From a virus: a stretch of 64,000 bases of DNA. Below are positions 4,283-64,000 of this stretch, piece by piece. Position 1 is the first letter of the stretch. Every line of letters starts with the position of its first letter. The stretch is from IMG/VR virus record IMGVR_UViG_3300036715_000468; one strand, written 5' to 3'. The position numbers and the translations under genes were made by a program. The notes under the pieces were generated by a model. The model was not told the origin of the DNA. It was given only the letters and a program-made list of their open reading frames with translations, and ran no database searches.

Positions 4283-4527
4283 GTATCTATTCCGAAATGT
4301 TTCTTAAATTCTTTTGTAACTTCGATAGTTGCTTCATTCCATGCCCTGCGTTCGTCAGTACCCGGCTCATAAGTGCCACATGTAGCTTTTTCACTAATAG
4401 TCATACACTGTTTAATAATCGCAGTAGCAAAGTCTTCGATGTTTCTGGGACTTATTAAAATACGGCCGTTTATCGTCGAGTCATGTCCTGTTGATCTTAT
4501 AAACAGTTTTCTAATTTCTTCGTTCAT
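4279..4527 (-). CDS. hypothetical protein (tandem paralog B)
   Basis: 82 aa; C-terminal ...KKHFGIDT and an internal IIKQC segment parallel the 3842..4282 product. Confidence 0.45.
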   Translation of the reverse strand: MNEEIRKLFIRSTGHDSTINGRILISPRNIEDFATAIIKQCMTISEKATCGTYEPGTDERRAWNEATIEVTKEFKKHFGIDT

Positions 4528-4563
4528 TTATTAACTCCGAGTCAAGTTTATTCCTGGTACTCA

Positions 4564-4776
4564 TTATTTTCCTAATTTAGATAATACTTCTGCTTTACTT
4601 TGTTGTAGCTGACATAAGAACTGTCTATATACTCCTAATGCAGCTATATCCATTTTATCGGGTGCCTCAATAGATTCCAACTCTGATATCTTTTTTACAA
4701 GTGATGCTGCTGCTTCTCTGTGCCTGAGAATATCTGCCTTTAATCCTTTAGCATCTTTCCAGAAAAACTTTTTCAT
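4564..4776 (-). CDS. hypothetical protein
   Basis: 70-aa ORF, 4-nt overlap with the upstream gene. Confidence 0.35.
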   Translation of the reverse strand: MKKFFWKDAKGLKADILRHREAAASLVKKISELESIEAPDKMDIAALGVYRQFLCQLQQSKAEVLSKLGK

Positions 4777-5216
4777 TTTATCAGGCCTTTACGCTTTCTG
4801 CGTTCGATCTCTTTTTTGTAAATTTTTGGCGACATCCGTTGACCACCTATCCAGTATTCCTTCGGATGCCCTTTCGCATCCACTGCCGGGCCATCTAATC
4901 TATGAAATTTACCGTCGACGAGCCAGAATTTACTACCTTTATGCTGATACGCAGGGCCATCTAATCTATGAAAATTACCGTCTTTATACCATGCTTCAAT
5001 GCCATACTTTGTGCTAACATATGCAGGGCCGTATATTCGATGATATACATTCTCCTTATTTATATAGACTGCATCAAGTGGCCCGGTTGCCCACCCCCAC
5101 CAATCTTCCCATAAACGTCCGTTACTATAATAATGTGGCCGGCATGGTGATCGCCACGATTTGTCAATCATTAGCGTTTCGAATAGTGCATCTTCTGATT
5201 TATTGATATCATCCAT
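4773..5216 (-). CDS. MORN-variant repeat protein (YwqK-like)
   Basis: three tandem repeats of W/F-x-x-D-G-K-F-H-R-L-D-G-P-A (HRIYGPAY, HRLDGPAY, HRLDGPAV). Confidence 0.55.
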   Translation of the reverse strand: MDDINKSEDALFETLMIDKSWRSPCRPHYYSNGRLWEDWWGWATGPLDAVYINKENVYHRIYGPAYVSTKYGIEAWYKDGNFHRLDGPAYQHKGSKFWLVDGKFHRLDGPAVDAKGHPKEYWIGGQRMSPKIYKKEIERRKRKGLIK

Positions 5217-33899: not shown

Positions 33900-36116
33900 T
33901 TAAACTACAATTAATGCTTCTGTTACGGGTGGATGCGGATCAATAACAAGTTCGCCGTCGACACAATCAACATTAACACGGCCGCCATCTTTTAACTTAC
34001 CGAATAAGATTTCTTTAGATAATACCTTTTTAATCTTCTCTTCGAATAAGCGTTCAAACGGTCTTGCACCCATTAATGGGTCATAACCATTTGTAGCAAG
34101 CCAGTCACGTGCCTGCTGAGTTACATTAAGTGTAATGTTCTTTGGAGCAAGCATTACATCTGTTTTCTCAACTTCGGCATTAACAATCAAATTCATTTCA
34201 TTCATTGTTAGTTTGTTAAATTTAACAATACCATCTAAACGATTTCTAAATTCTGGGCTAAAGAATTTTTTGATTTCAGCTTCAACAACTGCGCCGTTAT
34301 CTTGGCTACCAAAACCAATCTTTAATTTCTCAGCATCTGCTGCACCTAAGTTAGCAGACATAATAATGATTACGTTTGAGAAATCTACTGTCTTACCTTT
34401 AGACGATGTTAAGCGACCGTCATCCATTACTTGCAATAATACAGTTAATACGTCAGGATGGGCCTTTTCAACTTCATCGAGCAATAATACACAGTTCGGA
34501 TTAGTATCCACTACCTGAATCAATTGTCCTTCACCCATTTTACCTTCGCCGTGTCCTACAAAACCTGGAGGGGCACCAATAAATTTAGATACTGTATGCT
34601 TTTCCATGTATTCAGACATATCAAAACGTGCAAAGTGAACGCCGAGTGATTCAGCAAGTTTCTTAGCAGTATAAGTCTTACCAGTACCGGTTGGGCCAGT
34701 AAATAAGAAGCTACCGATAGGCTTAGTTGGATTACGCAATCCAGCCTTAGACATAAAGATTGCTTCAACAAGTTTGTCAATAGCAACATCTTGTCCATAC
34801 ACTTTGTTCTTTATACGTGGTGCAAGATTTTCCAACGCACTGTTTTCCTTCATGTCGATCATCTCAACAGGAATATGTGCAATTTTTGCAGCCTGGCGAA
34901 CAACGGAATCTATCGTCACTATTTTTTCTTCACGTAACTTAGCGATGGCACCGGCCGAATCCATAACGTCGATTGCTTTGTCCGGGAAGAACTTAGACTT
35001 CATATAACGTCCCGACAAATCTACGCACATATCTGTCGCGCCTTCTTCGAATGTTACACCGTGGAACTTCTCGTATTGATATGCAATACCGCGAAGAATA
35101 AGTTTTGTTTCTTCTGCAGACGGTTGATTAATATCGTACTTCTGGAAACGACGCAACAGTGCTTTATCTTTTTCGAAGTGTTCGTGGAACTCATCGTATG
35201 TTGTAGCGCCGACACACATTAATTGGCCCTTAGCAAGCATAGGCTTTAACATGTTACCTGCATCCATCTGGCTACCAGTCGTAGAACCTGCGCCTAAAAT
35301 CATGTGTATTTCATCAATAAACATAATGCAGTTACCGAGTTTTTTAACTTGGTCTAACACACCTTTCAAACGTTCTTCGAAGTCACCGCGGAATTTCGTA
35401 CCAGCTAACAAAGCACTGATATCTAAACTGTATACAACCTTATCTTGCAATGCTTTTGGAACTTCTTTATTTATAATCTTCAGTGCCAAGCCTTCTGCTA
35501 ATGCAGTTTTACCCACACCAGGCTCGCCGACATACACAACATTGTTCTTTTTACGACGAGCTAAGATTTCGATAGTATCGACAACTTCGCGTTCACGTCC
35601 GATCACCGGATCAATTGCACCATCTGTTGCTTCTTTATTTAAGTTACGTGCATACAAGTCTAAGAAAGTGTCTTCTTGTGTTGCTTGTTTCTCGTCTGCC
35701 TTACGCAAATGTTCGATAATTTTTTCTCTAGACACGCCGTATTTGCCTAAGAAATAATGTGAGTGGCTTGTTTCTTCGCTTAATATACTTAACAAAATAG
35801 CTTCGTTGCTAAGTTCGGCGCGGCCGCTAAATACTGCTTGTGTCAGCGCTCGCTGGAATGTGCGTTGTAATACAGCCGTGCGTTTTGCGGGTATGTCTTT
35901 TAGTGCGTCCGGCTTTTTAAGTGCAGGATCACCCAAAAATTGTATAGTCTCCGTCTTAATTTTAGCTGGTTGCCCGCCAATAGCAAGGATAAGTTCATTA
36001 ACTTCTTTCTCATGTAACAGAGATAATAATACATGCTCTAATGTTACATATTCGTGATTGTTGTCATTTGCGATTGCAACTGCGCGTTCAATCATTTTCT
36101 CTACCTTCTTAGTCAT
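33900..36116 (-). CDS. clpA: ClpA-type AAA+ unfoldase (ATP-dependent Clp protease ATP-binding subunit)
   Basis: ClpA-like N-domain (EYVTLEHVLLSLL), two AAA modules with Walker A GEPGVGKTA and GPTGTGKT, no ClpB middle domain, a KIGFG ClpP-docking loop; 738 aa. Confidence 0.9.
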   Translation of the reverse strand: MTKKVEKMIERAVAIANDNNHEYVTLEHVLLSLLHEKEVNELILAIGGQPAKIKTETIQFLGDPALKKPDALKDIPAKRTAVLQRTFQRALTQAVFSGRAELSNEAILLSILSEETSHSHYFLGKYGVSREKIIEHLRKADEKQATQEDTFLDLYARNLNKEATDGAIDPVIGREREVVDTIEILARRKKNNVVYVGEPGVGKTALAEGLALKIINKEVPKALQDKVVYSLDISALLAGTKFRGDFEERLKGVLDQVKKLGNCIMFIDEIHMILGAGSTTGSQMDAGNMLKPMLAKGQLMCVGATTYDEFHEHFEKDKALLRRFQKYDINQPSAEETKLILRGIAYQYEKFHGVTFEEGATDMCVDLSGRYMKSKFFPDKAIDVMDSAGAIAKLREEKIVTIDSVVRQAAKIAHIPVEMIDMKENSALENLAPRIKNKVYGQDVAIDKLVEAIFMSKAGLRNPTKPIGSFLFTGPTGTGKTYTAKKLAESLGVHFARFDMSEYMEKHTVSKFIGAPPGFVGHGEGKMGEGQLIQVVDTNPNCVLLLDEVEKAHPDVLTVLLQVMDDGRLTSSKGKTVDFSNVIIIMSANLGAADAEKLKIGFGSQDNGAVVEAEIKKFFSPEFRNRLDGIVKFNKLTMNEMNLIVNAEVEKTDVMLAPKNITLNVTQQARDWLATNGYDPLMGARPFERLFEEKIKKVLSKEILFGKLKDGGRVNVDCVDGELVIDPHPPVTEALIVV

Positions 36117-36126
36117 TTTATTTTCC

Positions 36127-36927
36127 TTAAATATTAATTGAATCTCTGTGTGTCAATGTTTTTAAAACTTCCGCTTGTGCAACAGTCAGTGCCTTCGGAA
36201 TAGTAATAGTGATGCGAACTAATATATCACCATGTTTATCAAGTTCGGGGTTTCTCATTCCTTTGCCTGATAATTTAACTATTTGCCCGGGCTGTATGCC
36301 TGCTGGTATTACAAACTGTAGTTTAACACCATCTAAGTGGTCTAGTATAGCATCCATGCCAACCATGGCCTCGATAGCATCAATTGTTACGTCAACTAGT
36401 AAATCGTCATTAGATCGTTTAAATTTAAAATGCTGTTGTATATCAACACGATACATTTTGTTATCAACAAAAAATTTAGTTCCAGATCTTGCTCCTCGTG
36501 GAACATTAATCACTGCTGACGAACTAACTCTTATCGACTTACCTATATATGCATCTGCAAGAGATATCGTTAATATATGTGTTGTTGTTTGTTGTTGCTG
36601 CGGTTGCTGTGGTCGTTGATTGAAGAATGCCTTAAACATCTCATCGAACTGTGCTGTATCAGTGCTCTGATGTGTCCAACTAGACCTGTTATTTGAAAAT
36701 CCTGGTCCGGCATGGCCATAGGTATCATATTCTTTGCGTTTTTCGAGATCACTCAATACTTCATATGCGTCTTTTGCTTCTTTAAACTTTTCCTCGGCTG
36801 CTGCGGAGCCTTCCCCGGGATTTCGATCAGGATGAAACTTCATCGCTAGGCGTTTATATCTGCCTTTAATTTCTTCAGCGGTAGCAGTTCGTTCTAACCC
36901 TAATATTTCATAATAATCTTTTTTCAT
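36127..36927 (-). CDS. DnaJ-like J-domain co-chaperone (CbpA/DnaJ type, no zinc finger)
   Basis: N-terminal J domain DYYEILGL...[12 protein letters not shown] with HPD; a Q-rich linker ([10 protein letters not shown]) instead of a G/F region; C-terminal substrate-binding-like domain. Confidence 0.85.
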
Positions 36928-51495: not shown

Positions 51496-52092
51496 TTAAA
51501 TCCTGCGTGTAATAATTTGATCTGCCAAGCCCATTTCCAGTGCTTGTGGCGCTGTCAACCATTTATCACGGTCCAAGTATTGTTTGAATTGATCAAACGT
51601 TACGCCTTTGGAATTGTGCTTAACATACAGTTCTGTCATCTCAGCTTTGATACGAAGACCTTCGATCAAGTCAATTTCCATATCAGACACCTTACCGCGT
51701 GTTCCCGATGATGGTTGATGGATCATTGTAATTGCATGTGGTAACAAATAGCGATGACCTGGCTCGCCTGCCTGAGCAATGAATGAACCCATGCTTGCAG
51801 CCATACCTGTTACATATGTGTGTACCGGACATTTTATATATTGCATAAGATCATAGACGCCCATGCCGTCGTAAACAGATCCACCCGGTGAATTAACATA
51901 AAGATTGATTGGCTGTTCTGGATTTTCTGCTTCGAGAAATAACATCTGTGCAATTAAGATATTGCACATATTAGTTTCTACTTCACCTGTCATAAAAATA
52001 ACACGTTCTTTCATCAGGCGGGAATATAAATCGTATGAACGTTCACCGCGAGATGTATTTTCTACTACCATAGGTACTAATACGTTTTTCAT
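51496..52092 (-). CDS. clpP: ClpP proteolytic subunit of ATP-dependent Clp protease
   Basis: near-collinear with bacterial ClpP ([11 protein letters not shown]...[12 protein letters not shown]...YVNSPGG...GMAASMGS...MIHQP), including the catalytic Ser and His motifs; 198 aa. Confidence 0.95.
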
Positions 52093-55296: not shown

Positions 55297-57117
55297 TTAT
55301 CTGCCGTAGCCTTTCATGTTACCTAGTTTAGCAAAACGCTGCATCCATTCTAATACTTCTGGATCTACGCCTTCTTTGATATCTTCTATATCGTCTTCTT
55401 TATCAGCTTTAGAATCATAATCTCTCTCATGCTTCAAACCTGTAGCAGTCTTAGTAGTTTTACCGTCTTCTTTCTTATCTTTCTTAGCAAGGTCTCTCCA
55501 AGGATTTTTATCATCAGATTCTTCCTTTACATTTTTACGGCCCCGTGCTTGTGCCCATTCCTCGTCTCCTTTAGTACCACGTGGACCACTTGTCGATGGT
55601 TGACTTTCTTTAATCTTTCCGCCAAGTGTTTTCATGCCCAATACTGGCGCAACTGATTCGACAAGCTTGTCATATTTTTTAAGTGTTGCTATCATTGCTG
55701 CTACGTCTTTGTCTACATTATTTTCCATAATTTCATTTCCTATAAATTTAATTGATTCTGGCATTGTCGGCGCTGTACCCGGTGGATATTGGCCACCGCC
55801 TGTTGGGCCAGCGCCGCCGCCCATTGAACCTATTTCGCCGCCTGTAGCAGCACCCATATCTTCGTCGTCTTCTTCTAGCTCTTTGTCTTCTTCTAGCTCT
55901 TTGTCTTCGCCCAGGTCTTCGTCTAGGTCTCTATCTTCTAACATAAATTTAACTAATTGTTTTATACTTTCCATTTGTGGTTCCTGGGCCGGTGCATGTA
56001 ATTGCGGTGTTTCTGCTGGTGCCTGTAATGATTGCTCTATGTCGTCTTTCTCAGGCTTTGCCTTTTTACGAACTTCATCTGTAAAATATCCCCTATCTAC
56101 AAATTTATGTAATTTTTCTATTTCCTGATCTATCTCATATGTCTTAATCTTAAAATCGTTCCCTTGCAAGGTCGGGTCGACTGAAAGATCTGCAAATGCT
56201 TTTTCCATCTGCGGTTTTTTTTCTTTTAATGCCGATGATAGATCTGTGAATAAATACGGAAATTTCTGACTTACCGTAGCTGCATTGGCTGGACGATCAG
56301 TTATATCCATAAAATTAGGCCCACCTGCATCAAATTGATATTTTTCAGTTTGACTTAGTTCCTTCTTACCGTCATCGTCGGTAACATTAACTGTCTCGTC
56401 TTCTGCATTTTTCGTCTTTGCATAAGGAAATAATTGAAATAGCATTGCTGCATCACTGTATCTATGGTAGTGTGTATCACTATTTGAATTTGCTGTACAC
56501 CATTGTGTACCTAATCCTAATGCACATCCAGCGGCACGATTTAATGTAGTATAAATTCTATAATCATCATTATCGACAAGTTTAATGCTCTTAGCCATTT
56601 TGTTTCTGGCAGCATTTTTAGATGCATCGCGCAAAGCTCCTAATTTATCTTTATAGTGTGTTGTCATATAATACCCGACATCACGAACGCTGTTAAATTT
56701 AGGCAAATCTTTATGGTTTGGATCTAACATATTACGATTCTTTAATAAGTACCAATCGCACAGGTTCATATTCATAACACCTGTTAAATCTTCCCAATTA
56801 TGACTACCTGCTATATATCGTCTTACAATCCAGTCACTATTTACTCCATCACGAGAATAAACAATACCTTCATATCCCTCGCGCTCAATGTTATCGATAT
56901 TTTCTAAGAACCATTGTGCTAATTGTTCATCTGGCGCCTTTTGGTATGACCTACTTGCACCCGGCGGAAATGCACCCGGGTGTGAACGTGCATCGTCCCG
57001 AATCGCATCAGCGAGATTGACTACTAAATTCTTATCATTCATTACCCGCTGACTGCCTTTTGTTAAGGCAGCAGCTTCAATAAGAAAAGCTTCGATGAGT
57101 GACTTTAATAAACTCAT
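55297..57117 (-). CDS. large acidic protein of unknown function (late gene; possible virion or ejected protein)
   Basis: 606 aa; DKELEEDKELEEDDED repeat; Gly-rich segment; coupled to the 1124-aa gene. Confidence 0.6.
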   Translation of the reverse strand: MSLLKSLIEAFLIEAAALTKGSQRVMNDKNLVVNLADAIRDDARSHPGAFPPGASRSYQKAPDEQLAQWFLENIDNIEREGYEGIVYSRDGVNSDWIVRRYIAGSHNWEDLTGVMNMNLCDWYLLKNRNMLDPNHKDLPKFNSVRDVGYYMTTHYKDKLGALRDASKNAARNKMAKSIKLVDNDDYRIYTTLNRAAGCALGLGTQWCTANSNSDTHYHRYSDAAMLFQLFPYAKTKNAEDETVNVTDDDGKKELSQTEKYQFDAGGPNFMDITDRPANAATVSQKFPYLFTDLSSALKEKKPQMEKAFADLSVDPTLQGNDFKIKTYEIDQEIEKLHKFVDRGYFTDEVRKKAKPEKDDIEQSLQAPAETPQLHAPAQEPQMESIKQLVKFMLEDRDLDEDLGEDKELEEDKELEEDDEDMGAATGGEIGSMGGGAGPTGGGQYPPGTAPTMPESIKFIGNEIMENNVDKDVAAMIATLKKYDKLVESVAPVLGMKTLGGKIKESQPSTSGPRGTKGDEEWAQARGRKNVKEESDDKNPWRDLAKKDKKEDGKTTKTATGLKHERDYDSKADKEDDIEDIKEGVDPEVLEWMQRFAKLGNMKGYGR

Positions 57118-60100
57118 TATGTCAATGCTACCAAACTATCTCTTAATGCATCTAACACAGGCTTCAATGCTGCTGAATTACCTTCTGCAGCAGATCTCAG
57201 GAACTCTTCAAATTCAGGTGTATATGACTGTGAACCCGATGCCTGAATAAGTGCATTTCTTAACTGTTGTTTTAATGCATACGCACCTTCACCCGCTAAA
57301 GGACCCGATGTATCAATTGTAGCAAGCAACTGCTTTAGTTTACCGCCACTCTGTGCAATTTTTGTTGCTGCTTCAAAATTGCCGCCATCGATATAACGCT
57401 TTGCTCTATTGTTAATCTGACCTAATGCTTGGTTCGCCAATGTTTTTAAAACTGGACGAACTCTAGTAAGAATCTTTGAAACTGCGTCAGCTTGATTAAA
57501 TGCAGGAACTTTCTTCATATCTGCACGTTTAGCCATTTTATCTCTTTCAACAGATCCGGTCGATGCTTCAATATCCTGCGGTTCGCCTTTATCGCCCCTG
57601 ATTCCCCAAAAGCCCGATACCCAGACATATTTAAGTGTACCAATTTCTTCTGCTAATAGATTAAAGACGTTGTAAGGAACCTGTGTATCTTTACCATGTG
57701 CCATACCCATACGTGTTCTAATTACTGTAGGATCTTGTGTCGTAAATTGATCATCTGGATTCTTCGGAGTCTTAACTTCTTTTTCAGGAGCCTGGAACAA
57801 TGATGAATCAAGTTTAGCTCCATCGTTCTTAAAAGCAACTACTTGATATTTAAGATTTGAATCTCCTGAAGGATTATATGTTTTACGTTTTTCCGCATAA
57901 CGTGTTGTCATATGGTCGATATAAGCTTGCGAAGGCTTAATACCTGCGACGCCGTCTGTTCCTTGAACAATAACAAAGTTATCTGGATTACTCTTAAATT
58001 CTGTCCACAATACGTTCTTATTAAACGGTAACTGGCGTAATTCGGATTCATTACCTAGCTTGTGTTTACCGTGTAGGAATTTTACTAAATTCTGGCCACC
58101 CTCGTTTCTTTTTCCATTTGGTAGTTTACCGACCTTCTGACTAAGTGTGCTTTCTTCAATTTCTTCTTCGTCTAATGCTGTTTCTCTTAAGATTGCATTG
58201 ATTTCTTCATCCCACTTAATCTGTTCGAATAAGGTAGGTTTAAGCACTGATAGTATGCTAGATTCGCGTAATCTCGGCATATTTCCGGGGCCAGGACGAC
58301 CTAACTGCGCATTACCACTACCAAAAGATTTTGCATCTTTATCTGGGTAAGCATAGATATATTGACCTGCTTGATCTCTGACAACATGGAATCTGATACC
58401 ATTCGCCTTAAATTCTTTTACATCTGGTTTGTAGCCCGGGATAGCCATTCCGTGACTTACATCCACCGATCCCATATCTTCAGCATTGTCGCGTAACCAT
58501 CCTGCTACAGCTCGCATCTCTGCTTCTGTATTCGGGCCTTGCCCATCAACATTAGCCATTGTCTGAATTTGTTCTACAGGTGTATTAGTAAACATACCAA
58601 ATACTTGACGACCCATTCCGCGGATATTTCTGTCTCCGAATCCTGGCAAATTATTTACGTTATGCCAATCCGGTGTTTGCATTCCAGATGCTTGCATTGC
58701 CTGACTAATAACAGATGGAACATCTCTTGCTGTTCTTATCATTAATTCATTCTGCGGAGTATCAGGTGTTGTATTTGCAAGTTCGCCTTCGCCTGCACCG
58801 GCGTATGGACTAATGCGATTCATTAAGTCACGCATTGTCTGTGATGGATTCATTCCACGAAGCTGATTTTGTGTATCTGCTCTTGATGCTGATGGTAAAT
58901 GCATCGGCGAATCTCCAGCGGCAATATTGCCGTCAGTATCAACGTCTGCAGGCAGATATGTCGGACGCGGGTTTAATACATCGTCTAAATCATCCAATGG
59001 ATCATACATTTTAGTCTTTGTTGGTTTTGGAGCAGGCTCAAAAGCTTCGGATATATCGCCAGTTACCTGTGAATGTATTTGTTGTAGCTGCTCCGGGGAC
59101 ATACTTCTTAATTCATCTTCGTTATAAAGTTTATTCGAATTACTAATCCCCATCTCTTGCATATATGCAATAGTCGAAATCATGTAAGTTAATTCGTCAT
59201 CTTCATCGCCTTCGAATTCCGAATCATCGTCGTCGCCCATATCCATACCGCCATTACGCTGCGTATCGTTGGCATACATTCCGTCGTCTTCTGGTCGATC
59301 ACCGTCTTCGTAATCGCCGAAGCCGTCGTATTCATCTTCGTCGAGATTATCTTCGCCATATGTCATGGGAGAATTTTCACCGCCGGATTTTCTAAATTCC
59401 GTCTTAGTTACGATATCGCCTAACTTGACGCCTTTGCCAGACCGACCTTTCTCTGGCTGTTCGAATTCCATTTCTTCTTCTTCGACAGGCATGTTACCAC
59501 CTTTAAGTGGCATTACTTTGTTTGGAACTGCTGCGAATGGAATTTCAAATCCGTCTTCGTCATCTTCTTCCATACCCACTTCTTCTAATCCACTATATTC
59601 GTCTGCGCCGATATCTTGCATGCCAGAATCCAAGTCACACTGCATTGCATCGTGCTCATGATCTTCGTGACCACATGTAGGACATGCACTATGCATACCT
59701 GGCTCAGCCATATCCACGCCACCGATAACAATAGCTGCTTCTGGACCATCTGTATCATTATTCTGTGCAGGGAAGCATGTAGCACAATCCCAGCTACCAC
59801 AACCACATTCCGGTGCAGCTGGCATACTTGCACCAATATCGCCGCCTTCGTTTGACAGTGCTTCTTCTACTGTTGAAATCCATTTTGAAAATTCGTCTCT
59901 GTGGTCCATCTCTGGCTCCTTTTCTATTTTTACGTTTTGGGAACCAAGCGACATTGGAGATAGGTTACCGTCATTGTCTGTTTGGCTAAATCTTTCTTTT
60001 GCTGCTTGTTCTTGAATTGAACTTACGTTCGCTGTAGGTACGACAATTTCTCTATTGTCAAAGCTAATAATGCAATCTAATCCGCTTGTGCTATATGCAA

Positions 60101-60491
60101 TGAAAATACCGAAGCCTGGACCAATAACTGAACCGAATACATCTTCGATCTTTACCATATCGCCTGCGCGGAGTTCCGGAGCATTATTCATTGTGCCGAT
60201 TGTGTCAGGTACTACGCTTTTATGTGTCCAGCTGTTACTGTTTGTATATGGGTCTTCGTAATCACGATTTGGTAGGGAGAAATCGCCAAATTTTAATTCA
60301 CGTATAACACCCTTAATTTCGATCATTGCGCCCTGTGCTGTATCACGAATAAAACGGCCTGTGCCGCCACCGTAAGTAGGGTCAATCATCACTGTAGCAT
60401 TTTTCTCAACATTTACATTCTTTGCTGGTTGGTCGGCGATGGTAGGAGGAACTGTCTCCATAATCTTCAACCATTTTCTAAATTCTGACAT
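57117..60491 (-). CDS. very large protein of unknown function with Cys/His clusters and long acidic stretches (late gene)
   Basis: 1124 aa; CGCGSWDCATCF and CPTCGHEDHEHD clusters; poly-acidic DE-rich regions; GATAAATA late motif and a GAGGGA RBS upstream. Confidence 0.6.
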   Translation of the reverse strand: MSEFRKWLKIMETVPPTIADQPAKNVNVEKNATVMIDPTYGGGTGRFIRDTAQGAMIEIKGVIRELKFGDFSLPNRDYEDPYTNSNSWTHKSVVPDTIGTMNNAPELRAGDMVKIEDVFGSVIGPGFGIFIAYSTSGLDCIISFDNREIVVPTANVSSIQEQAAKERFSQTDNDGNLSPMSLGSQNVKIEKEPEMDHRDEFSKWISTVEEALSNEGGDIGASMPAAPECGCGSWDCATCFPAQNNDTDGPEAAIVIGGVDMAEPGMHSACPTCGHEDHEHDAMQCDLDSGMQDIGADEYSGLEEVGMEEDDEDGFEIPFAAVPNKVMPLKGGNMPVEEEEMEFEQPEKGRSGKGVKLGDIVTKTEFRKSGGENSPMTYGEDNLDEDEYDGFGDYEDGDRPEDDGMYANDTQRNGGMDMGDDDDSEFEGDEDDELTYMISTIAYMQEMGISNSNKLYNEDELRSMSPEQLQQIHSQVTGDISEAFEPAPKPTKTKMYDPLDDLDDVLNPRPTYLPADVDTDGNIAAGDSPMHLPSASRADTQNQLRGMNPSQTMRDLMNRISPYAGAGEGELANTTPDTPQNELMIRTARDVPSVISQAMQASGMQTPDWHNVNNLPGFGDRNIRGMGRQVFGMFTNTPVEQIQTMANVDGQGPNTEAEMRAVAGWLRDNAEDMGSVDVSHGMAIPGYKPDVKEFKANGIRFHVVRDQAGQYIYAYPDKDAKSFGSGNAQLGRPGPGNMPRLRESSILSVLKPTLFEQIKWDEEINAILRETALDEEEIEESTLSQKVGKLPNGKRNEGGQNLVKFLHGKHKLGNESELRQLPFNKNVLWTEFKSNPDNFVIVQGTDGVAGIKPSQAYIDHMTTRYAEKRKTYNPSGDSNLKYQVVAFKNDGAKLDSSLFQAPEKEVKTPKNPDDQFTTQDPTVIRTRMGMAHGKDTQVPYNVFNLLAEEIGTLKYVWVSGFWGIRGDKGEPQDIEASTGSVERDKMAKRADMKKVPAFNQADAVSKILTRVRPVLKTLANQALGQINNRAKRYIDGGNFEAATKIAQSGGKLKQLLATIDTSGPLAGEGAYALKQQLRNALIQASGSQSYTPEFEEFLRSAAEGNSAALKPVLDALRDSLVALT

Positions 60492-61106: not shown

Positions 61107-62144
61107 TTATAATAGATGAATAAACCTATGTTTATTATCGTAAAATCTTGTTGAGCCAACCATTCTATCTAGTGTTGCTCTACCAATTATATCGGCAGTG
61201 AATCCCTCAATCTCATCTTCAACTTCGTCGACAGGTATATCTTCGACAGTAATATTTGATACATTAATTGTTGCCGATCCATCGTCTGGTACGTTGCCCA
61301 ATAATACAGGGAAGAAAGTAACTTTTGCATTACCCTCCAGTATCTCTTTATAATTCACAGATACATAGTATTCTAGTGTGTCGGGTTCTATATAAAGTAT
61401 CGAATGGAAATCTCTGCTATCAGAGCTTACTAAGCCGAATAACTCACACTTAGATCCGCCTAATGTATATATTTTATTTTCATCGATTACATTCGACGAA
61501 CCTTTGCCAAATAATATATGATTGAAATAGGCATTTTCTCTTGCAATAATATTTCTAAAATAGAATGATAACCCCGATATATTATTTTGATAAAATGTTG
61601 ATAAATTAAGTCTTGCCCTGGGATTAATTATGTAATTTGTTACTGCATTTAATGCACTAAAGCTTTCTATCTCTTCAATGATTTCGGCTTCTAACCCGTC
61701 GGCTATGTTAAACACGATAACTGAATTATAGAATGTTTCATAATCAGCAGTGTATTTTACATAAATTGGCTCGTCGATCTCTCCGACAATTTGAAATGTC
61801 GTGTGATTCTGACACACTAAGTATGCTAGTGTCGAAAATACTTCCGGATTATATAGATTTTTCGGATTCGTAGCCATGTTATGTTCTAGCGAATTTTTTA
61901 TAATAATACCTGGGTGATCAAATATAGCTTGGCTTACACGAATTTCATTACCCGATACTAATACTATTAATCCTGTAATAGCTGGATCAACAATCATCTG
62001 AACTTTATTGTTCTGTATTAAAAACCGTTGTTCGAAAAATGTATCTAACTTTGTGTTTTTATATTTGTCCTGTGTAGACGAAGATAATAACTCTTGATAG
62101 TATTTTCCTAAAAAGGCTTTTATTTGTATTAAATTTTCTGACAT
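61107..62144 (-). CDS. hypothetical protein
   Basis: 345-aa ORF. Confidence 0.5.
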   Translation of the reverse strand: MSENLIQIKAFLGKYYQELLSSSTQDKYKNTKLDTFFEQRFLIQNNKVQMIVDPAITGLIVLVSGNEIRVSQAIFDHPGIIIKNSLEHNMATNPKNLYNPEVFSTLAYLVCQNHTTFQIVGEIDEPIYVKYTADYETFYNSVIVFNIADGLEAEIIEEIESFSALNAVTNYIINPRARLNLSTFYQNNISGLSFYFRNIIARENAYFNHILFGKGSSNVIDENKIYTLGGSKCELFGLVSSDSRDFHSILYIEPDTLEYYVSVNYKEILEGNAKVTFFPVLLGNVPDDGSATINVSNITVEDIPVDEVEDEIEGFTADIIGRATLDRMVGSTRFYDNKHRFIHLL

Positions 62145-62169: not shown

Positions 62170-62478
62170 TTATAGTTCTTCGAATGTTGGTGTCAATGGG
62201 AAGTTATTTGCTCTAGCAAAACTAATAGTTTCTAAAGTTTTTTCTTCAGCTACTTCACGTGTATATGGCGATCCTGCAATACCCTGTCCAGTAACATGTA
62301 TTGCGTGAGTTATATCTACGGCATCATCGACGGTACGATGGAAAATGTCTGTAAGAACTTTAATTACAAAGTCGAATGTAGACTTATCATCATTATGCAA
62401 TAAGACCTTATACATTTTTGGAATCTGGACTTTTATGGTCTCAGTTGTTTTTTCAATAATTTCTATTTCAGTTGCCAT
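62170..62478 (-). CDS. clpS: ClpS N-degron adaptor of ClpAP
   Basis: PKMYKVLLHNDDKSTFDFVIKVL...AIHVTGQGIAGSPYTREVAEEK...ARANNFPL is collinear with E. coli ClpS, including the NDD and His N-degron-binding residues. Confidence 0.9.
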   Translation of the reverse strand: MATEIEIIEKTTETIKVQIPKMYKVLLHNDDKSTFDFVIKVLTDIFHRTVDDAVDITHAIHVTGQGIAGSPYTREVAEEKTLETISFARANNFPLTPTFEEL

Positions 62479-62561
62479 GATTTGCGTCCTTTAGTGTGTA
62501 GCATACATTATTACACACCCGGGGTCTCTAAGTCAATTGGGTTTACTCGATAATATCTATG

Positions 62562-63509
62562 CTAATGGTGCGAAAATAACGATTTAAAAAAGTTTATTAT
62601 AGCCTCAAATATACCAGTACTCTGTGTTGGTTCTACTGACACAATAGGTGATGTACTTTCAATAGGAGCACTTGTGATAACGATATTGAACGGTTCGACA
62701 AATTGTTGATCATATAATGTAGGTGAACCGTCTAGTTCAGGGACTTGTTCGAGTCCATTTGTTTTCATAAAACTATCCATAGATAATATAAGATTTCTAT
62801 AAGTAATAGACGTATTAGATGCAGCAGCTAATAATGCAGCAGTTGCAGCACCCTGAGGGACACCGTTAATGACGGCATCTGCAGATGTCTGGTCGGCATG
62901 ACATCCAGCAATTAATAATGCACTTGCATTAATATCTTTAGATGCTGTCCAGTCAACTAGTGTTCTAGTTTTTAACTGATTAACAATCTTTGTAGGCGGC
63001 TTTAAGTAGCGAGCACCTTTTGTCTTTTTTGAAGATGCAGGTTTTACTAATTCTTTTGTACCATTAAGGCTTTCCGTTTGATTTAACATTGTCCCAGAAT
63101 GACAGCTATCTAAAATTACAGTAGTATTAACACCGTTAGGAACTTTATTGAAAATCTTACGTAAATCATTATCGGAGATAACTTTGTTCAGCCAATCTAA
63201 GTCAATCGGGCAAATTATTTCTTCAAACCCGTCTGGCTCGACTGAACTAGGAATTTGTGAGCCGTGTCCACTATAATGAAACACAATTACATCGCCAGAT
63301 TGCGTATCCGCTGTCAACCAAGCGAGACCTGCCTTAATTCCGGACGTCGTTGCTTCTTTTTCGAGGATCTGTTTAATATCTGTAAAACCTCGGGCTGTTA
63401 AAAAATCCTTCATATGTGTCGAATCATTTATACAACCATGTAATTCATTGCTAGTACCGACATAATTAATGGCTACTAATAGGGCGCGTTTTTTCATGTG
63501 AACCTCCAA
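62562..63509 (-). CDS. metacaspase/orthocaspase-like C14 cysteine protease
   Basis: catalytic His in VFHYSGHGS and Cys in ILDSCHSGT (the D-[AS]-C-H-S-G metacaspase signature); N-terminal ALLVAINY strand. Confidence 0.75.
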   Translation of the reverse strand: MEVHMKKRALLVAINYVGTSNELHGCINDSTHMKDFLTARGFTDIKQILEKEATTSGIKAGLAWLTADTQSGDVIVFHYSGHGSQIPSSVEPDGFEEIICPIDLDWLNKVISDNDLRKIFNKVPNGVNTTVILDSCHSGTMLNQTESLNGTKELVKPASSKKTKGARYLKPPTKIVNQLKTRTLVDWTASKDINASALLIAGCHADQTSADAVINGVPQGAATAALLAAASNTSITYRNLILSMDSFMKTNGLEQVPELDGSPTLYDQQFVEPFNIVITSAPIESTSPIVSVEPTQSTGIFEAIINFFKSLFSHH

Positions 63510-63521
63510 CTGTTCACATAT

Positions 63522-63914
63522 TTATCTTTCGATGATTAGTCTCTCTGTGCTACAACAATCTATTAATGTTTTATATACTTCCTGCTCTACATTTATACAG
63601 CCCGATGTAACAAATCTGTCTTTTACAGTTGGACTATGTAATCTTTCTAATCGGCGTTGATCGGGGAGAAGTAACCAAACCCTATGTATTGCATAGATCA
63701 TACGTGTATCCTCCGAAAATTGCAAGATATCGCCGCCGTAACCCGGGGAAGTAGTGCTCAGGTGCTTAAGAGTAAACTCACCTACAGGTGTTCGATTATC
63801 CTTACCTAATAGTACCGGGTGACATTCTTTTATATTATTATTTGTAAAACAAATTGTAGCAAGTGCTAGACTGACAATTATAGACATATTTTTATCCATT
63901 AAAAAAGGCTGCAA
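63522..63914 (-). CDS. secreted or membrane-anchored L,D-transpeptidase-like (YkuD-fold) protein
   Basis: hydrophobic N-terminal signal/TM segment; IHRVW...VTSGCINV matches the H...S/T-x-G-C-[IV] catalytic motif. Confidence 0.55.
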   Translation of the reverse strand: MQPFLMDKNMSIIVSLALATICFTNNNIKECHPVLLGKDNRTPVGEFTLKHLSTTSPGYGGDILQFSEDTRMIYAIHRVWLLLPDQRRLERLHSPTVKDRFVTSGCINVEQEVYKTLIDCCSTERLIIER

Positions 63915-63930
63915 TGCAGCCTTTTTGTGT
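63905..63930 (-). terminator. rho-independent terminator
   Basis: aggctgc-aat-gcagcct flanked by A6 and T5 runs. Confidence 0.65.
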
Positions 63931-63940
63931 TAGTAGTATT

Positions 63941-64000
63941 ACTGTGCAATTTTCTTTTTAGCTACTTCCAAAATAACTGGGAGTTCTCTAATAAGTGTAA
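63941..64000 (-). CDS. partial CDS (C-terminal end of a gene starting beyond the window end)
   Basis: minus-strand frame ending ...VAKKKIAQ-stop just upstream of the terminator. Confidence 0.3.

Follow-up and report, generated by a model that had tools for sequence, protein, structure and literature searches.

Do three neighbouring genes at the end of an uncultured phage sequence work together, or do they stand side by side for another reason? The question is raised by a 64,000-nucleotide stretch of viral DNA (IMG/VR record IMGVR_UViG_3300036715_000468; hereafter the window, meaning the whole stretch analysed), which closes with genes for the N-degron adaptor ClpS, for a metacaspase and for a small protein of the YkuD fold, here called mini-YkuD. 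An earlier sequence-only reading had proposed that the three may be a functional unit acquired from the host, with an exported L,D-transpeptidase (LDT) among them. The open reading frames (ORFs) on which it rested, at 62170-62478, 62562-63509 and 63522-63914, are present, consecutive and all on the minus strand, and its domain calls (ClpS PF02617, Peptidase_C14 PF00656 and YkuD PF03734) are right, each scoring above the Pfam gathering threshold. The motifs it named, HYSGHG, DSCHSG and SGCINV, were also found, with the catalytic residues intact. The explanation we reach differs from that proposal. We consider it on balance probable that the three genes are genuine and encode active proteins, that they stand together by descent within one clade of phages and not as a host-derived cassette, and that they belong to two functional neighbourhoods.

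Each of the three proteins joins a known family, and it is the phage context of an intact metacaspase, probably tethered and translationally gated, that is unusual. The most notable feature would be a membrane-tethered metacaspase, predicted from sequence to be conserved across a large clade of uncultured phages. Caspase-family proteases are prominent in bacterial anti-phage defence, where they act in gasdermin activation and in the CHAT/Craspase systems. A conserved and apparently active phage metacaspase, for which cultured phage genomes have no counterpart, would mean that this class of protease is used by phages as well, and would offer a tractable enzyme.

Active site, predicted anchor and start-codon hairpin of the metacaspase

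The reading frames used by the sequence-only reading stand, while its two start codons at TTG 63914 and TTG 63509 lie too far upstream; public gene calls begin the metacaspase at ATG 63497. In an alignment of 30 sequences that are 50-68% identical to the window protein, His78 (codon 63266-63264, within FHYSGHG) and Cys132 (codon 63104-63102, within DSCHSG) are invariant, as are C22, N24 and D25 of a GCxND motif, D130, the E93..P97.D99 motif and S205, A206 and D207 of QTSADA. The His and Cys motifs (HYSGHG and DxCHSG) are kept in all 120 homologs of a wider set. Searched against the Protein Data Bank (PDB), the family profile matched AtMC4 (2.6e-50), Yca1 (1.8e-49, over its full length) and TbMCA2. 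The active site was mapped by alignment to catalytic-mutant structures, and Cys132 aligns with the mutated catalytic cysteine of AtMC4-C139A and AtMC9-C147A/G. In the AlphaFold2 model (predicted local distance difference test, pLDDT, 79.6; predicted template modelling score, pTM, 0.78) residues 134-163 form a disordered K/R-rich linker. Comparison of this model with known caspase folds, a check that the earlier reading had called for, returned metacaspases as the best matches: a Foldseek search of the PDB gave AtMC9 and AtMC4 first (3e-20), followed by Geobacter GSU0716, TbMCA2 and Yca1.

The Asp of the GCxND motif and D130 presumably form an acidic S1 pocket, an assignment made by motif correspondence with TbMCA2 and not from coordinates. 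From these features we infer an Arg/Lys-specific protease, type-I-like and without a prodomain. The calcium-site motif DGFEEIICPID is kept; its fourth ligand is Asp in most homologs and Asn139 in the window copy. Arg163, conserved within the disordered linker, is a candidate autoprocessing site. The conservation of these motifs indicates that the metacaspase is probably an active enzyme. Searched against a defence-system library, it gave only a partial 'caspase' match (2.7e-15), which says nothing on function, and the other proteins gave no match.

A hydrophobic C-terminal helix follows a variable Pro/Thr/Ser-rich linker in 113 of the 120 homologs, with a median of one residue beyond the helix. 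Lys and Arg are strongly biased around it, with 220 before the helix against 17 after. This bias, together with the terminal position of the hydrophobic helix, would make it a tail anchor, with the catalytic domain in the cytoplasm. A C-terminal transmembrane (TM) helix with an intracellular metacaspase domain has been described for cyanobacteria (PMC3501461). In the window protein and a few others the C-terminus is an amphipathic helix instead, GIFEAIINFFKSLFSHH, which spans residues 295-308 in the model. In the arrangement that we propose, the flexible Pro/Thr-rich tether and the C-terminal anchor would hold the metacaspase at the cytoplasmic face of the inner membrane, where it would cut at Arg/Lys sites.

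Metacaspases had been described as rare in phages, and our searches agree. Only one of 50,697 catalogued phage records gave a tblastn match to the metacaspase (LR745208.1, uncultured, 485 kb, 31.5% identity), and among 25 significant matches in the BFVD viral structures 24 were caspase-family proteins, all from giant eukaryotic viruses or an ascovirus, with none from a phage. A full-text literature search found no paper using the phrase 'phage metacaspase' or a close variant. In metagenomes the family is large, comprising at least 120 clusters above 50% identity. IMG/VR contains further phage and giant-virus relatives, down to 27% identity. The giant-virus metagenome-assembled genome (GVMAG) contigs there carry metacaspases 27-32% identical to the phage protein, in a conserved synteny of their own (loci L058, L059, L062, L063, L066, L067, L074, L078, L080, L083, L084, L086, L088-L090, L093 and L095; L numbers denote the loci fetched for comparison).

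The host origin that had been suggested for the genes fares less well. Among 185,579 species-representative genomes the best cellular homologs of the metacaspase are 41-44% identical and scattered over Acidobacteriota, Syntrophobacteraceae, Thiobacillus, Gallionellaceae, Nitrosospira, Spirochaetota, Dehalococcoidia and others. Because the closest cellular sequences are this distant and spread over many phyla, while the phage family itself spans 50-73% identity, a recent acquisition of the metacaspase from a host is not supported.

The start of the metacaspase gene lies within an RNA hairpin (63520-63495) that presents GGAG in its loop and in which the first two bases of the start codon, A and U, are paired at the base of the stem. 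The stop codon of mini-YkuD (63524-63522) sits 1 nt 5' of the stem. With 10 distinct relatives, including L002/L024, L003, L007, L020 and L026-L030, RNAalifold recovered 11 pairs, five of them with compensatory changes on both sides; the stem sequence varies and the pairing is kept. A stop codon that abuts a covarying start-codon hairpin suggests that mini-YkuD and the metacaspase are translationally coupled. We propose that the two are a coupled pair, in which a ribosome terminating on mini-YkuD would open the hairpin and allow translation of the metacaspase. The hairpin may in this way keep a potentially toxic protease low and tied to the expression of mini-YkuD.

Mini-YkuD, its fold and its secreted neighbours

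The start of mini-YkuD cannot be TTG 63914, because this codon falls inside an intrinsic terminator hairpin (63926-63902). The candidates are ATG 63899, giving 125 residues, and ATG 63887, giving 121; the latter is more likely, as most homologs begin MS[IV][IV]V. The protein matches the Pfam YkuD family at 3.7e-6 (28.0 bits against a cut-off of 23.4) and phrog_38499 at 1.6e-37. Its AlphaFold2 model has a pLDDT of 92.7, and in Foldseek all 125 residues align to Bacillus subtilis YkuD (1Y7M; 1.9e-7, TM-score 0.69) and to LdtMt1/3 (TM-score 0.70), over 126-160 columns. The proposed comparison with the YkuD fold is therefore positive over the whole length. We aligned 30 sequences that are 44-71% identical to the window protein, numbering residues from the 125-residue form. 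In a profile alignment 'VVVSLALATICF..ECHPVLVGKD..TPVGEY' fell onto YkuD residues 61-109 and 'TKGCINV' onto 'SKGCIRM'; the catalytic Cys of SGCINV is encoded at 63599-63597. As H72, G100, C101 and N103 are invariant in the 30 sequences, mini-YkuD is probably active as an enzyme.

The sequence-only reading had described the protein as signal-peptide-bearing and secreted. In the model the supposed signal peptide forms β-strands 6-10 and 15-20, at a pLDDT of about 96. The hydrophobic strand begins three or fewer residues after the Met in 25 of the 30 family members, no Lys or Arg stands upstream of it in 27 of the 29 members where it was located, and charged residues occur within it in 12 of 30, for example MIEVLLAKALICF. 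A profile search of 1.84 billion representatives returned 590 relatives of mini-YkuD, and in those extended at the N-terminus a genuine Sec or lipoprotein signal precedes the whole domain, as in '...LCAQAFGA' continued by DPRKRKAVVDTKKAELCLEERCYPVLVGKDTP. We regard this comparison with exported relatives as decisive: as modelled, the 'signal peptide' is the first β-strands of the fold, a core segment that in exported relatives comes after the true signal. A lipoprotein reading of the same N-terminus was also rejected, since 'LATIC' does not form a lipobox and belongs to a core β-strand. The case illustrates an annotation pitfall, in that the hydrophobic first strands of a YkuD domain are readily mistaken for a signal peptide.

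Further features set the family apart. The spacing between the catalytic His and Cys is 29 residues, compared with 16 in YkuD, owing to a 13-residue helical insertion between them. Besides the catalytic Cys, C17, C26 and a C-terminal CC pair are conserved, and these could form disulfides or a metal site. Domains of the mini-YkuD type also occur inside LPD38 polyvalent proteins of 1,200-3,700 residues (P0322, P0329, P0337 and P0362), which suggests use by mobile elements at cell entry. In cultured phages, homologs were found only in Xanthomonas and Stenotrophomonas phages of unrelated types and in one listed Erwinia phage, at 41-51% identity. A scan of viral contigs with the single mini-YkuD sequence gave no confirmed locus, and the relative loci used here were obtained through metacaspase scans.

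The genes that precede mini-YkuD point to a possible partner other than those first proposed. In the Stenotrophomonas phage DLP5, the Xanthomonas phages XacN1 and PhiXhv-12 and locus L178, a homologous low-complexity protein of 390-529 residues with a Sec signal is encoded directly upstream of mini-YkuD. These proteins match each other at E values of 1e-28 to 1e-83, and in DLP5 the annotated end of the upstream coding sequence is the first base of the mini-YkuD coding sequence. Genes upstream of mini-YkuD encode Sec-signal proteins in the window clade, L179 and L180 as well. The 134-residue upstream protein of the window begins with a Sec-type sequence, and homologs of it are encoded ahead of mini-YkuD in L002 and L179. 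A second, 253-residue type of upstream protein is linked to the upstream protein of L180 (8.5e-12), and the latter to XacN1 ORF391 (6e-6). No Pfam family matches any of the upstream secreted proteins. They are rich in Ser, Thr, Gly and Asn with Lys/Arg-rich C-terminal tails, and may be the real partners of mini-YkuD. In L179 a 65-residue ORF with two hydrophobic (TM) segments overlaps the mini-YkuD start and looks holin-like on inspection of its sequence. A module of secreted protein and mini-YkuD, common to unrelated phages, is better supported than the trio first proposed.

With exported relatives known, and with genes for secreted proteins consistently ahead of its own, mini-YkuD most likely acts on the stem peptides of peptidoglycan or on links between envelope proteins and peptidoglycan. 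It would reach such substrates only after a breach of the membrane, in the manner of an endolysin, or in the form of lipid-linked precursors at the inner leaflet.

ClpS, synteny and the competing explanations

This leaves the question of where ClpS belongs. Several NCBIfam ClpS models match the window protein at about 1e-20, and it aligns with Escherichia coli ClpS structures at 3.5e-13. In structural work on E. coli ClpS, residues N34, D35, D36 and H66 are those that bind the α-amino group of the substrate. Their counterparts N29, D30, D31 and H61 are all kept in the window protein, as are the ClpA-contact residues E75, E78 and K80. At the gatekeeper position Met40 of E. coli is replaced by Phe35, which may alter specificity. 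The conserved residues suggest that this ClpS would recognise N-terminal Leu, Phe, Tyr or Trp and deliver the proteins that carry them to phage ClpAP.

The sequence-only reading had placed ClpS in a unit with possible envelope roles. A ClpA and a ClpP are encoded elsewhere in the window. The TIGR02639 match to ClpA spans its full length, with Clp_N, AAA_2 and ClpB_D2-small domains, and the protein carries the ClpP-docking IGF loop, 'KIGFGSQ'. A ClpX-like ATPase follows just past the window end of the same phage (L015 5907-7145); the gene for ribosomal protein S21 adjoins it there. The Clp set (ClpA, ClpP, ClpS and ClpX) and DnaJ are scattered over more than 30 kb. Jumbo-phage ClpS and ClpP have been noted before, with ClpS as a ClpAP adaptor (Iyer et al. 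2021; PMC7824862). On these sequence features ClpS appears to fit the phage-encoded ClpA and ClpP better than an envelope module. We propose that it is the adaptor of the phage's own set of ClpA, ClpP, DnaJ and ClpX, with a small heat-shock protein (sHSP) in relatives. ClpA, ClpP, ClpS, ClpX and DnaJ in one phage suggest a self-contained protein-degradation pathway.

ClpS is also preceded by a promoter candidate of its own, which fits 10 of 12 consensus positions and has an extended -10 TG, by pattern match alone. A second promoter sequence, TTGACA-16-TATAAT, fits 12 of 12 positions at 62196-62169, inside the 3' end of ClpS and ahead of the next gene. The product of that gene matches TIGR01981 at 1.3e-6; a SufD-like identity falls below the Pfam and TIGRFAM thresholds and is kept as tentative. 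Neither the single sequence nor a 10-sequence profile found a PDB relative, and tblastn gave no phage match. SufD of E. coli is a reported ClpS ligand, and the proximity of a SufD-like gene to ClpS may be coincidence.

To examine synteny, the window proteins were searched by tblastn against 95 fetched loci. Only where the metacaspase is at least about 53% identical to that of the window do the genes run in the order mini-YkuD, metacaspase, sHSP, ClpS, SufBD-like gene, orf109, orf56 and orf1124, and the adjacency of the trio is part of a long collinear block in one phage clade. Even within this block the three are usually not contiguous: of the 27 relative loci with a ClpS gene (counting duplicate fetches), 25 have an IbpA-type sHSP gene separating it from the metacaspase, and the window and L030 have none there. 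In Agrobacterium phage Atu_ph07 and Sinorhizobium phage Phosso ClpS again has an sHSP gene as a neighbour (sHSP genes at L012 3815-4276 and L013 2706-3107), together with thymidine kinase, and neither a caspase nor a YkuD gene is near it. The pairing of ClpS with an sHSP thus seems to predate its pairing with the metacaspase. L001/L020 have no mini-YkuD gene, and L018/L019, a 287-kb contig whose metacaspase is 56% identical, has wholly different neighbours. In L018 (metacaspase at 4350-5144) a Peptidase_S11 D-Ala-D-Ala carboxypeptidase, another cell-wall enzyme in this phage group, is encoded 3 kb upstream. About 60 viral loci with a metacaspase below 50% identity, among them LR745208.1, have no ClpS or YkuD match within 7 kb. 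When 634 flanking ORFs from 64 loci below 52% identity were clustered, the only recurrent families were those of giant-virus genome synteny. The idea that co-localisation marks a functional unit thus meets an adjacency limited to one collinear clade, an intervening sHSP and a promoter-like site for ClpS alone. Given these limits of synteny and the separate promoter-like site, the trio are neighbours by descent, and not demonstrably by function.

Several observations weigh against the picture of two neighbourhoods, one of coupled mini-YkuD and tethered metacaspase and one of Clp proteins. The window metacaspase itself is without a transmembrane anchor, and it has Asn139 where most homologs have the calcium-site Asp. 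The start-codon hairpin is also kept in L001/L020, which lack mini-YkuD, and coupling is therefore not obligatory. A strong terminator parts mini-YkuD from the upstream secreted-protein gene in the window, and a search of the genes beside mini-YkuD there turned up neither a holin nor any other lysis gene. The 134- and 149-residue upstream proteins have no significant homology to the upstream proteins of the Xanthomonadaceae phages and share with them just a short C-terminal 'IEVPAK(K/R)' resemblance (E about 0.2), so that the link between the two groups runs only through the 253-residue type of protein via L180. Finally, ClpS or YkuD genes of high divergence in the vicinity of distant metacaspases could have escaped tblastn with such small queries.

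Other explanations of the locus were weighed against these data. In the first, the metacaspase would cut host or misfolded proteins after Arg or Lys, the sHSP of the relatives would hold the fragments or aggregates, and ClpS would feed proteins with new destabilising N-termini to the phage ClpAP; metacaspase and ClpS would in that case be a genuine functional pair, supplying amino acids or removing host factors. The adjacency of metacaspase, sHSP where present, and ClpS is kept within the clade, the phage has a complete ClpA, ClpP and ClpS set, and a weakly SufD-like gene follows ClpS. Most N-degrons in bacteria result from internal cuts made by unknown peptidases, E. coli SufD being one ClpS ligand of this sort (bioRxiv 10.1101/2021.07.26.453911); the yeast metacaspase Mca1/Yca1 acts in aggregate clearance (PMC5053244, PMC6341073). 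These points make a functional link between metacaspase and ClpS attractive but unproven. The same adjacency is gone in L018/L019 and in all of the roughly 60 more distant viral loci, Atu_ph07 and Phosso have no metacaspase near ClpS, and ClpS has its own promoter-like site. A membrane-tethered metacaspase would be unexpected for bulk proteolysis, and the SufD-like call is below threshold and without PDB support. We consider this explanation unlikely.

It is also possible, with lower probability, that mini-YkuD and the metacaspase are a late pair for lysis or envelope attack, the metacaspase processing a holin, an antiholin, a spanin-like protein or a host envelope protein, and mini-YkuD cutting L,D-bonds or the tethers between outer membrane and peptidoglycan after permeabilisation. 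Such a pair would fit the placing of the hairpin relative to the stop codon, which is as expected for translational coupling, the membrane anchor of the metacaspase, and the link of mini-YkuD to secreted proteins and, in L179, to the two-TM holin-like ORF. YkuD is moreover a known, if rare, catalytic domain of phage lytic proteins (PMC8310338), and is found in the LPD38 polyvalent proteins. Yet the supposed partners often occur apart: mini-YkuD is without a metacaspase in all the Xanthomonadaceae phages and L179, the metacaspase is without mini-YkuD in L001, L018 and all distant loci, and no lysis genes were identified nearby in the window.

The model of the sequence-only reading, a host-derived trio whose exported LDT alters peptidoglycan or the attachment of lipoproteins, with a role in superinfection exclusion, in the timing of lysis or in envelope stress, and with ClpS and the metacaspase in the same process, now seems very unlikely. 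The YkuD fold and catalytic triad are intact, exported relatives of mini-YkuD exist, and an LDT could in principle exclude other phages, as LD-crosslinks inhibit phage lytic transglycosylases (PMC11390936). The lack of a signal peptide on the phage protein nevertheless largely refutes the model; in addition, the metacaspase has no close cellular homolog, the co-localisation is confined to one collinear clade, and ClpS has dedicated partners elsewhere in the genome. That at least one of the three is a degenerate pseudo-enzyme or a decoy without catalysis would accord with the lost anchor and Asn139 of the window metacaspase and with a YkuD Pfam score barely above threshold, and is made highly improbable by the His and Cys motifs kept in every metacaspase homolog, the invariant His72, Cys101 and Asn103 of mini-YkuD at 44-71% identity and the conserved pocket of ClpS.

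We therefore retain the explanation of descent within one clade and two functional neighbourhoods. A bolder extension, which we offer as speculative and rather improbable, is that a widespread clade of uncultured jumbo phages uses a membrane-tethered, gated metacaspase for host takeover or control of cell fate, either making N-degrons for ClpS-ClpAP or cutting membrane or defence proteins, and that the signal-less mini-YkuD works with the co-encoded secreted proteins, for instance in attaching them to peptidoglycan or releasing them from it. If true, a caspase-family protease would for the first time have been shown to work for the phage in the conflict between phages and bacteria, and the endopeptidase step still missing from a bacterial-type N-degron pathway would gain a candidate.

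Source genome and comparison with known systems

The window derives from an uncultured jumbo myovirus that is a distant relative of the Atu_ph07/Phosso/Rak2 group. Its family B DNA polymerase shares 38-43% identity with the enzymes of Phosso, Atu_ph07 and Rak2-like jumbo phages, and a megablast of the region against the 50,697 phage records gave no nucleotide match. The G+C content is 38%, and other genes of the window include those for a clamp-loader subunit, a sigma-70 region-4 protein, PhoH, a 5'-3' exonuclease and an SPFH protein. A metacaspase identical to the window copy is present in JGI and Logan metagenomes, on contigs as long as 70 kb, and contigs with homologs reach 388 kb. At 57117-60491 lies an ORF of 1124 residues that is very acidic (Asp/Glu-rich and in part of low complexity) and 43-59% identical across the clade; it has no family match in Pfam, PHROGs or NCBIfam. 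The features described in the text are collected in Table 1.

Table 1. Positions of the features discussed, in the window and in related loci.
Feature	Sequence	Position	Strand	Basis or remark
ClpS, N-degron adaptor, 102 aa	window	62170..62478	-	PF02617 2.6e-22
Sigma-70-like promoter candidate 5' of ClpS	window	62507..62536	-	TTGACT-18-TG-AATAAT, consensus scan
Metacaspase, 311 aa, C-terminal amphipathic helix	window	62562..63497	-	PF00656 1.2e-29
RNA hairpin over metacaspase ribosome-binding site and start codon	window	63495..63520	-	-9.7 kcal/mol, z -3.6
Mini-YkuD-fold protein, 121 aa, without signal peptide	window	63522..63887	-	PF03734 28 bits
Intrinsic terminator between secreted-protein gene and mini-YkuD gene	window	63902..63926	-	hairpin and U-tract, -14.7 kcal/mol, z -4.4
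3' end of secreted 134-aa protein gene, remainder outside window	window	63939..64000	-	complete gene in L015 9155-9559
ClpA-type AAA+ unfoldase, likely ClpS partner	window	33900..36116	-	TIGR02639 866 bits
DnaJ co-chaperone	window	36127..36927	-	PF00226 4.1e-25, PF01556 1.8e-20
ClpP peptidase	window	51496..52092	-	PF00574 2.7e-67
Weakly SufB/D-like protein, downstream of ClpS	window	61107..62144	-	PF01458 25.0 bits (cut-off 27)
sHSP gene between metacaspase and ClpS	L002	9045-9494		equivalents in L001, L003, L007-L010, L025-L029
Sec-signal genes upstream of mini-YkuD	window	63939-64000		
Sec-signal genes upstream of mini-YkuD	L015	7539-9559		
Sec-signal genes upstream of mini-YkuD	L176	3820-4992		
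Sec-signal genes upstream of mini-YkuD	L014	2334-3923		
Sec-signal genes upstream of mini-YkuD	L177	2597-3970		
Sec-signal genes upstream of mini-YkuD	L178	3444-4946		
Sec-signal genes upstream of mini-YkuD	L179	2771-4805		
Sec-signal genes upstream of mini-YkuD	L180	638-1978		

Among known systems, the metacaspase most resembles the type I metacaspases (MEROPS C14B; Yca1/Mca1 and Trypanosoma brucei MCA2). It has the caspase-hemoglobinase fold with the HYSGHG and D(S/C)CHSG dyad, the predicted acidic S1 pocket (the Asp of GCxND and another that precedes the Cys by two residues), the calcium-site motif DGxEEIxCPxD, the QTSADA motif of the p10 region and a disordered K/R-rich linker between p20 and p10. 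It differs in coming from a tailed phage, where earlier viral examples come from giant eukaryotic viruses, in having no N-terminal prodomain, in being only 41-44% identical to its best cellular homologs, in the Asn that stands in the window copy in place of the fourth calcium-ligand Asp, and in a translation that appears to be gated by a hairpin. Most of the homologs further share with bacterial and cyanobacterial metacaspases a C-terminal TM helix, with the domain predicted to be intracellular. The hairpin itself recalls the coupling hairpins of the RNA phage MS2 and of bacterial operons, in which a stem hides the downstream start right after the upstream stop, and it likewise shows compensatory substitutions. 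In contrast to those, its Shine-Dalgarno sequence is exposed in the loop and not paired, and it is kept in one relative without the upstream gene.

Mini-YkuD shares the β-sandwich fold and the His...(S/T)xGC(I/V)N motif with the LDTs and L,D-peptidases of the YkuD family (B. subtilis YkuD, LdtMt2, Pgp2/Csd6 and DpaA), and resembles the type VI secretion effector Tlde1 and canonical endolysins in having no signal peptide of its own. Unlike the YkuD-family LDTs it is a bare catalytic domain of about 120 residues, without LysM or other peptidoglycan-binding domain, and it has the helical insertion between His and Cys and the extra conserved cysteines. Its family is centred on phages, where it consistently follows genes for secreted low-complexity proteins. 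ClpS, in turn, is like that of the E. coli ClpS-ClpAP system in its fold, in the residues of its N-degron pocket and of its contact with the ClpA N-domain, and in a flexible N-terminal extension of about 20 residues. The difference, from E. coli ClpS-ClpAP and from the jumbo-phage ClpS described before, is that this phage brings its own ClpA, ClpP and ClpX, and therefore need not rely on the ClpAP of its host.

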